Source: Shigella phage Ag3. Taken from it: a stretch of 64,000 bases of DNA. Under the pieces are notes generated by a model. That model was given only the letters and a program-made list of their open reading frames with translations. It was not told the origin of the DNA and ran no database searches. The DNA lies in sequence record FJ373894. The stretch is one strand, 5' to 3'. Within the stretch, counting starts at the first letter, position 1. The number at the start of each line of letters is the position of its first letter. The position numbers were made by a program, and so were the translations under genes. Of this stretch, positions 15,718 through 17,328 are shown in pieces.

Positions 15718-17328
15718 ATGTTAGACAATATGAGATGGTTTTATGGCACCGTTGAAGATGTCAACGATCCAGACCAAAACGGGCGCGTCGCCGTCCGCAT
15801 CTATGGCGTCCACACTGATGACACCGTCCTCCTGCCTACGGACAAACTCCCATGGGCGAAGGTGCTGATGCCTGCTTCAAACGCCTCCTCTGCTGGTTTA
15901 GGTTGGTCTCCAACGGGTATCATTCCTGGCACTGAGGTTATGGGGTTCGCCCTTGACGAAGCATACCAGAACCTGCGTATCACTTGGACTTGGCCTGGGG
16001 CAAATCCCACTGATGGAGCTGACACGAATCCGCTGGCTCTCGGACAGGTCGTTCAATCTGTAGAACGTCAGGCGTACAACGCTGTCACTGACGTTCCTGT
16101 GAAACAAGAAGACGAACCACAACCAGATCCACAACCACCTGTTGGCGGGTATGATCCTGAAAAATGGATGACCATCGCTCGCGGCGAGCTGGGTGTCAAG
16201 GAGTACGCCGGAAAGTTCAACAACAACCCGCGCATTATAGAATATCACAAGACAACCTCCCTTGGCGCTTCTGAAGATGAAGTGTCATGGTGTGCGGCGT
16301 TCGTGGGCTGGGTTATGTTGCAGGCTGGATACACGTCTACGCGCTCCGCTCTTGCCCGATCTTACCTTACATGGGGTAGTGCACTGTCAGCACCACAATA
16401 TGGTGCTATCGTAGTCTTCCGGCGCGGTAACAACCCTACATTTGGACACGTGGCGTTTGTACAGAAGTTCGATGCAAACTATGTCTGGTGTATCGGTGGC
16501 AACCAATCCGATTCAGTGAAGGTCAGCCGCTTCAGCCGTTCGTCAGTCCTGGGCTACCGCTGGCCTGGTCCGGCGAATACAGCTTCAGCCGCCCCAGCGC
16601 AACAGAACGGGAAATGGTCTGAGCCTATCCCTGATCGTACCCCAAAAGAGCAGGCAACTCCGGCTCCTACAGGGCGCGTACAGGATATTGATAACACGGG
16701 CGAAACTATGGTTCCGGCAGCGGGTGGCTCCAAGTACCCGTACAACAACGTCATGGCATCCCGAGCAGGTCACATAATGGAGGTGGACGACACTCCTGGT
16801 GGTGAGCGTCTTCATTGGATGCACATGTCCGGCTCCTACAAACAGATGCTCCCGAACGGCGACGTCGTCAACAAGTCAGTGAAGGATCATTATGACCTGA
16901 CCATGTTTGACAAGCGCTATTATGTCGGCGGGGACCACAACCTGACGGTCAAAGGAACTGAAGTGCAGCGCAAGACTGGTGAGGTCTATCACCTTCACTC
17001 CAACAACTACTCCAACGTGGTTGCAGGTACAGCGCTGATGAAATTCAGTGACCTGGCTGAGTTGCAAGCGCAGAATATTCTGCGCATCATCTGCGAGACT
17101 CTGGAGGTCGGCGGGACGTTGAAGGTTCCTAAGATTCTGGCAACAGAGATCATCGCCGACAAACTGACGGTTGCTCAGACGATTAATGGTAACATCATAT
17201 ATGCCGAAGGTGCTGGTCGCGCTTCTTCTCTGTCAGGTGCAACCCCTGCATCCCCTACGGGACCAGGTGAGATTGATATCAAGGCAGAATTAAAAGACAA
17301 TGGTGGTAATTTCGGCACCGAAGAGTAA
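15718..17328 (+). CDS. 5: baseplate central spike (T4 gp5-like) with cysteine-peptidase-type cell-wall hydrolase domain
   Basis: 536 aa; N-terminal OB domain WFYGTVEDVNDPDQNGRVAVRIYGVHTDD..LPWA matches gp5/VgrG; middle domain with Cys (SWCAAFV) and His (GHVAFV) of CHAP/NlpC-P60-like peptidase; C-terminal repetitive beta-helix-like region. Confidence 0.85.
   Translation: MLDNMRWFYGTVEDVNDPDQNGRVAVRIYGVHTDDTVLLPTDKLPWAKVLMPASNASSAGLGWSPTGIIPGTEVMGFALDEAYQNLRITWTWPGANPTDGADTNPLALGQVVQSVERQAYNAVTDVPVKQEDEPQPDPQPPVGGYDPEKWMTIARGELGVKEYAGKFNNNPRIIEYHKTTSLGASEDEVSWCAAFVGWVMLQAGYTSTRSALARSYLTWGSALSAPQYGAIVVFRRGNNPTFGHVAFVQKFDANYVWCIGGNQSDSVKVSRFSRSSVLGYRWPGPANTASAAPAQQNGKWSEPIPDRTPKEQATPAPTGRVQDIDNTGETMVPAAGGSKYPYNNVMASRAGHIMEVDDTPGGERLHWMHMSGSYKQMLPNGDVVNKSVKDHYDLTMFDKRYYVGGDHNLTVKGTEVQRKTGEVYHLHSNNYSNVVAGTALMKFSDLAELQAQNILRIICETLEVGGTLKVPKILATEIIADKLTVAQTINGNIIYAEGAGRASSLSGATPASPTGPGEIDIKAELKDNGGNFGTEE

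Follow-up and report, generated by a model that had tools for sequence, protein, structure and literature searches.

The spike gene and its neighborhood

The window analyzed here is a 64,000-nucleotide stretch of Shigella phage Ag3 (FJ373894), a Vi1-like phage genome of the genus Agtrevirus in the Ackermannviridae. At 15718..17328 on the plus strand it carries a single open reading frame of 536 amino acids and a stop codon, a gp5-type central spike gene, whose product begins MLDNMRWFYG and aligns at this point to the N-terminal start of the gp5 proteins of T4 and JS98. The gene is flanked by baseplate genes, with a gp26-like hub gene upstream and a gp25-like wedge gene downstream (Table 1). 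The longest reading frame of the hub gene opens at a GTG codon (14287-15207, plus strand); the ATG at 14398, which gives a product of 269 aa, agrees with both the annotation of Salmonella phage P46FS4 and the Pfam match. A reading frame of 49 aa (15207-15356, plus strand) abuts the hub gene and ends in a terminator; it is listed as hypothetical in the annotations of P46FS4, LIMEstone1 and ChubbyThor.

At least 80% of the spike protein is present in 278 phage records. The closest counterpart, P46FS4 ORF101, has a DNA identity of 99.6% and a protein identity of 100% and is annotated as 'baseplate hub protein, T4-like gp5', while the Vi01 ortholog has 85% protein identity. Orthologs have also been found in virions: the LIMEstone1 record describes the protein (ORF061) as 'confirmed structural protein', and the ortholog in CsCl-purified virions of Sajous1 was detected with 20 mass spectra (PMC10892097).

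Table 1. Coordinates of the spike domains, predicted catalytic codons and related genes in the window.
Feature	Position	Strand	Support
Baseplate hub gene, T4 gp26-like	14398..15207	+	Pfam T4_baseplate 5.2e-45; P46FS4 annotation
OB domain, N-terminal, aa 1-94	15718..15999	+	Pfam Gp5_OB 3.5e-13; T4 gp5 and JS98 gp5 alignments
Linker 1, aa 95-148, Pro/Asp/Gln-rich	16000..16161	+	Composition; pLDDT <50 in whole-protein model
NlpC/P60-superfamily cysteine peptidase domain (TIGR02594/CHAP), aa 149-283	16162..16566	+	
Cys192 codon, predicted nucleophile	16291..16293	+	Invariant in 24 spike orthologs; at least 90% in 54 family members
His244 codon, predicted general base	16447..16449	+	Invariant in 24-ortholog and 54-member alignments
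Asn262-Gln263 codons (GGNQ motif), predicted third polar residue	16501..16506	+	Invariant in both alignments
Linker 2, aa 284-335, Pro/Ala-rich	16567..16722	+	
C-terminal spike module, aa 336-495	16723..17202	+	Proximal part homologous to T4 gp5 beta-helix start
C-terminal tail, Gly/Ala/Ser-rich, aa 496-536	17203..17325	+	Conserved in BX-1
Baseplate wedge gene, T4 gp25-like	17401..17781	+	Pfam GPW_gp25 6.6e-09; phrog_261 2.6e-33
Endolysin of the phage, PG_binding_1 and N-acetylmuramidase	24442..25254	-	Pfam Muramidase PF11860 1.6e-58; PG_binding_1 6.1e-15

The spike start is separated from a strong terminator (15355-15374) by a non-coding gap of 361 nt (15357-15717), which is more conserved than the spike gene itself; compared with LIMEstone1, the gap is 94.8% and the gene 86.9% identical, and in the comparison with SKML-39 the figures are 100% and 96.5%. 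The gap is present in 270 Ackermannviridae records, where it is almost never annotated, and a core of it persists in Kuttervirus (78-82%) and in Taipeivirus (~72%). A small gene was rejected as its content, the reading frames being inconsistent between phages and the changes non-synonymous; so were an Rfam family, every match to which fell below the gathering score, and an unusually stable RNA, the fold of the gap giving z=-0.14 against shuffled sequences. The LIMEstone1 annotation places the -10 element of a putative late promoter close to the counterpart of ~15676-15681. The window contains two exact copies of a 20-mer, ATGAGCGAAGCGAATAGGAT, one within the gap at 15592-15611 (+) and one at 61895-61914 (-), in both cases in intergenic DNA and co-oriented with the downstream gene. 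No such repeat is expected by chance, even with three mismatches allowed, and it may be a regulatory site common to both places or a very short leader reading frame (MSEANRI...).

Domain architecture of the spike protein

The N-terminal region matches the Pfam family Gp5_OB (aa 35-97, 50.4 bits, cut-off 25), and a phmmer search of the PDB aligns aa 1-94 with residues 6-102 of T4 gp5, with E-values of about 1e-14 to 1e-15; JS98 gp5 aligns over its residues 4-146 (2e-21). The first-pass annotation had read this region as the gp5 OB domain, in agreement with these matches. The homology to T4 gp5 resumes at aa 338-433, which correspond to gp5 residues 385-478 at similar significance (about 1e-14 to 1e-15), and aa 339-442 align with residues 391-504 of JS98 gp5 (9e-18). 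Nothing in T4 gp5 matched the spike between aa 94 and aa 338 in the PDB search. This interval holds two linkers, the first of which (aa 95-148) has no family match, while the second keeps some positions invariant in 24 orthologs, for example W300, E302, P303 and R307; between them lies the middle domain described in the next section.

The C-terminus had been described in the first-pass annotation as repetitive, in the manner of the gp5 needle, and here the kinship stands while the repetition is weak. Self-similarity of this region reaches z=1.3 at a lag of 8 residues and z=3.0 at a lag of 24, with no clear 8-residue periodicity, and neither Gp5_C repeats nor Gp5_trimer_C was matched by Pfam in the C-terminal module, whereas a T4-like gp5 control matches both. 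The relationship to the gp5 needle thus rests on direct homology of the proximal ~100 residues and not on repeats. A whole-protein AlphaFold monomer built from the 24-sequence alignment reached a pLDDT of 48.5; this model is unusable for the needle and linkers and was kept out of the fold search. In 13 of the 24 aligned orthologs the chain continues beyond the C-terminus of the window protein by up to about 84 Ser/Thr-rich residues. The long-tailed orthologs include proteins of the Serratia 3M and Erwinia phiEa2809 type (606-617 aa); the window protein is without this extension.

Comparison with the spike of Vibrio phage BX-1, a distant member of the family (Ackermannviridae, Vapseptimavirus), defines the topology of the middle region. 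In BX-1 the OB domain (1-117) runs almost directly into the needle module (139-334); the OB domains of the two proteins are homologous at 2e-26, and BX-1 residues 139-334 align with aa 336-533 of the window spike at 2e-27. Given this direct junction, aa ~118-335 of the window protein, comprising linker, peptidase and linker, are on these alignments an insertion at the junction where T4 gp5 has its lysozyme. The BX-1 spike (1016 aa, encoded at 2501-5551 of its locus) is arranged in the order Gp5_OB, needle module, Amidase_2 (aa 417-538) and Peptidase_S74 intramolecular chaperone (aa 907-959); it is without a CHAP domain and so places another enzyme at another position on a common scaffold. Further arrangements are seen in metagenomic proteins: P0144 and P0145 (319 and 333 aa) combine a gp5 OB domain with a TIGR02594 peptidase and have no needle, P0146 (492 aa) has an OB domain, a gp5C-like segment and then a TIGR02594 peptidase at its C-terminus, and P0149 and P0150 join the gp5 OB domain to other enzyme or unknown domains. 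Judged from these sequences, the spike enzyme is evidently a module that can be swapped.

The middle domain: fold, predicted catalytic residues and relatives

The first-pass annotation had placed the Cys and His motifs of a papain-like hydrolase in the middle domain, and both were recovered: SWCAAFV spans aa 190-196 (nt 16285-16305), and GHVAFV spans aa 243-248 (nt 16444-16461). The domain search that it proposed returned a full-length match to the NCBIfam model TIGR02594 (aa 150-282, profile positions 2-132 of 132, E=5.3e-38, 130.3 bits against a cut-off of 70.55) and a match to Pfam CHAP (aa 187-262, E=8.4e-11, 42.7 bits against a cut-off of 26). The TIGR02594 subfamily belongs to the NlpC/P60 superfamily, in Pfam clan Peptidase_CA. 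Across 24 full-length spike orthologs with 59-96% identity, W191, C192, H244, N262 and Q263 are all invariant.

When the middle domain alone was searched by sequence against the PDB nothing significant was found, the best match being the hub peptidase of phi812 (E 0.27), and structural relatives therefore had to be sought by fold. An AlphaFold2 model of the domain, built from the 54-member alignment, has a pLDDT of 95.7 and a pTM of 0.91. In this model Cys192 is found at the N-terminal end of a helix, and a beta-strand carries His244; this is a papain-like arrangement, the geometry of the triad being judged only from secondary-structure positions and conservation. A fold search with the domain model matched NlpC/P60 peptidases, with a papain-like alpha+beta fold, and returned no lysozyme fold among its matches. 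The structural neighbors comprise DL-endopeptidases, MepS (a DD-endopeptidase/LD-carboxypeptidase) and CHAP amidases or endopeptidases.

A lysozyme as the middle domain was rejected on several grounds. A profile scan of the spike protein found no lysozyme family even at E<=10, T4 lysozyme gave a best BLASTP E-value of 2.6 against the spike, and the fold search was likewise negative, whereas JS98 gp5, run as a positive control through the identical scan, returned Gp5_OB, Phage_lysozyme, Gp5_C and Gp5_trimer_C. No confident alignment to a lysozyme of family GH24, the result named in the first-pass annotation as refuting its proposal, was obtained, and the window spike is without a GH24 lysozyme domain between its OB domain and needle. 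The proposal of a papain-like cell-wall hydrolase in the lysozyme slot of gp5 is accordingly borne out by four independent lines of evidence, namely the profile matches, the confidently predicted fold, the invariant Cys, His and Asn residues and the lysozyme-positive control. The 'lysozyme' label carried by most Ackermannviridae records is contradicted by this domain evidence.

In sequence the domain is 40-56% identical to free-standing TIGR02594 proteins of 130-250 aa, many of them carrying PG_binding_1 or SH3 domains. Gram-negative cells are lysed by this subfamily elsewhere as well, by the endolysin of Pseudomonas phage ZC01 (PMC5418858) and by T6SS effectors, the Stenotrophomonas effector V5 and a VgrG4-linked effector (PMC13340143, PMC13055248). 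These proteins, with the homologs from phages PAKlein3 and ICP1 (gp207), belong to the same enzyme subfamily as the window spike, with 36-56% identity over the domain, and attack the peptidoglycan of Gram-negative cells from the periplasm. Unlike the spike enzyme, they are soluble proteins in their own right, in which PG_binding_1, SH3 or LysM domains are frequent, and are not borne on a spike. The Pseudomonas phage PAKlein3 homolog (168 aa, locus 1864-2370) adjoins a holin and an Rz-like spanin, and Vibrio phage ICP1 gp207 (238 aa, locus 3252-3968) carries PG_binding_1; as both look like endolysins, the lysozyme label appears to have been propagated to them from the Ackermannviridae spike. 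Around the closest free-standing homolog (P0002), three small upstream reading frames had no Pfam labels.

Because the middle domain has endolysins as its free-standing homologs, and because an ortholog of the spike appears in some databases under no other name than 'TIGR02594 family protein' or 'cell wall-associated hydrolase', the window protein might itself be taken for an endolysin with an OB-like N-terminus. This is hardly conceivable for a protein in which both flanks of the peptidase domain are homologous to gp5, whose gene sits between baseplate genes and whose orthologs are found in purified virions, in a phage that encodes a separate muramidase endolysin on the other strand. In T4 the spike lysozyme and the endolysin are paralogs. 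The window phage differs in this respect, as its endolysin is a muramidase unrelated to the spike peptidase, which implies that entry and exit would proceed by different chemistries.

The peptidase is the best-conserved segment of the spike: its identity in the ten most divergent orthologs is 81%, where the other segments reach 45-67%, and its share of invariant columns among the spike orthologs is 46%, compared with 18-31% elsewhere. Such conservation speaks for an active enzyme maintained by selection. The lysozyme activity of T4 gp5 is reportedly dispensable under some laboratory conditions, which lends something to the alternative of a domain without catalysis, kept in the spike as a structural or peptidoglycan-binding module. 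We consider this very improbable, since the Cys, His and Asn-Gln residues are invariant in the 24 orthologs and essentially invariant in 54 free-standing enzymes, no other part of the protein is as well conserved, and the subfamily of the domain works as endolysin and as lytic T6SS effector. An active cysteine peptidase remains the preferred reading.

Proposed role in penetration and relation to known spikes

Taken together, these results make it probable that the gene encodes a membrane-piercing Agtrevirus central spike, built like T4 gp5, in which an active NlpC/P60 (TIGR02594) peptidase with the residues Cys192, His244 and Asn262 replaces the GH24 lysozyme and cuts the peptide part of peptidoglycan at penetration. 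By analogy with T4 gp5, the N-terminal OB domain would dock in the baseplate hub, with the enzyme carried on flexible linkers ahead of the C-terminal needle module. Contraction of the sheath would then drive a presumably trimeric spike across the outer membrane, so that three peptidase domains could reach the periplasm and cut the peptide part of the peptidoglycan locally, and this local opening would allow the tail tube to reach the inner membrane.

It is reasonable to suppose that the bond cut differs from that cut by lysozyme, since the targets of all its close structural relatives are peptide or amide bonds, not glycosidic ones. The specificity itself cannot be read from the sequence, because the structural neighbors span DL- and DD-endopeptidases, an LD-carboxypeptidase and amidases. 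By analogy, the most likely target is the gamma-D-Glu-meso-DAP bond of the stem peptide, as DL-endopeptidases specific for gamma-D-Glu-mDAP make up most of the nearest structures; action as a DD-endopeptidase or as a MurNAc-L-Ala amidase would be less likely. If the domain were a CHAP-type N-acetylmuramoyl-L-alanine amidase, it would strip whole peptide stems from the glycan. The CHAP family, which is Pfam's best sequence model for the domain, includes amidases, Amidase_6 gives a weak match (E 0.12), and the Amidase_2 domain in the spike of the Vibrio-infecting BX-1 indicates that amidase chemistry evidently suits the task of a spike. We regard an amidase as unlikely and favor an endopeptidase. 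The literature searched contained no biochemical, cryo-EM or other structural study of an Ackermannviridae spike.

The spike with a peptidase in place of a lysozyme is a correct description of this protein, and it is already known. The tail-associated lysozyme of Vi01-like phages (PhiSH19, Vi01, LIMEstone1 ORF061 and P46FS4 ORF101) is the same gene as the window spike, with no difference of substance. The 2011 genome paper on PhiSH19 lists the ortholog as 'Tail-associated lysozyme' with 'Gp5 OB family & CHAP domain' (PMC3220722). NCBI has one ortholog cluster under the name 'TIGR02594 family protein'; one record reads 'cell wall-associated hydrolase'. The novelty implied by the first-pass annotation is thus lost, the domain combination having been published and the protein being identical to P46FS4 ORF101; with the domain content in the literature since 2011, it will not surprise a specialist.

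Among known systems, T4 gp5 (PDB 1K28, 1PDL) shares the OB domain, the start of the needle, an enzyme on linkers at the equivalent junction and a baseplate gene neighborhood with a gp25-like gene; it differs in bearing a GH24 lysozyme where the window spike has an NlpC/P60-type cysteine peptidase, and the window spike is without its Gp5_C and Gp5_trimer_C matches. The BX-1 spike comes from the same virus family and is homologous both in the OB domain and along the entire C-terminal module, but has no insert between OB domain and needle and carries its Amidase_2 and Peptidase_S74 domains downstream of the needle module. The diffocin hub-hydrolase CD1368 (8v3w_H), the hub protein of Staphylococcus phage 812 (9euf_E, 9eum_A) and ORF56 of phage K (TAME) are directed at Gram-positive walls and are built on another scaffold, not the OB-insert-needle arrangement of gp5. 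A 2017 review noted that endopeptidase virion lysins generally come from phages of Gram-positive hosts and named phi6 gp5 as the only virion lysin of a Gram-negative phage with demonstrated endopeptidase activity (PMC5380687).

The present analysis corrects a label, since many of the Ackermannviridae records among the 278 are deposited as 'tail lysozyme' without a lysozyme domain, and the wrong name has also been carried to unrelated free-standing endolysins. The peptidase domain is small, confidently folding and highly conserved, which makes it an easy target for biochemistry or for use as an enzybiotic module. By analogy with its relatives, it suggests that a Gram-negative phage with a puncturing device like that of T4 can pass the cell wall by cleaving peptide bonds rather than the glycan.

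A broader proposal is that cassettes are freely exchanged at the enzyme position of the Ackermannviridae spike, with a chemistry that suits the wall of the host. In this view the TIGR02594 peptidase at the OB/needle junction of the enterobacterial genera would derive from an endolysin; Vibrio-infecting members have an Amidase_2 downstream of the needle, and metagenomic relatives carry the peptidase behind the needle or lack a needle. As a whole we think the proposal quite improbable. If it were true, and if the enzyme cut an unusual target such as 3-3 cross-links or the Lpp-peptidoglycan tether, this would be the first characterized endopeptidase spike of a Gram-negative myovirus, and could account for part of the broad host range of the Ackermannviridae.
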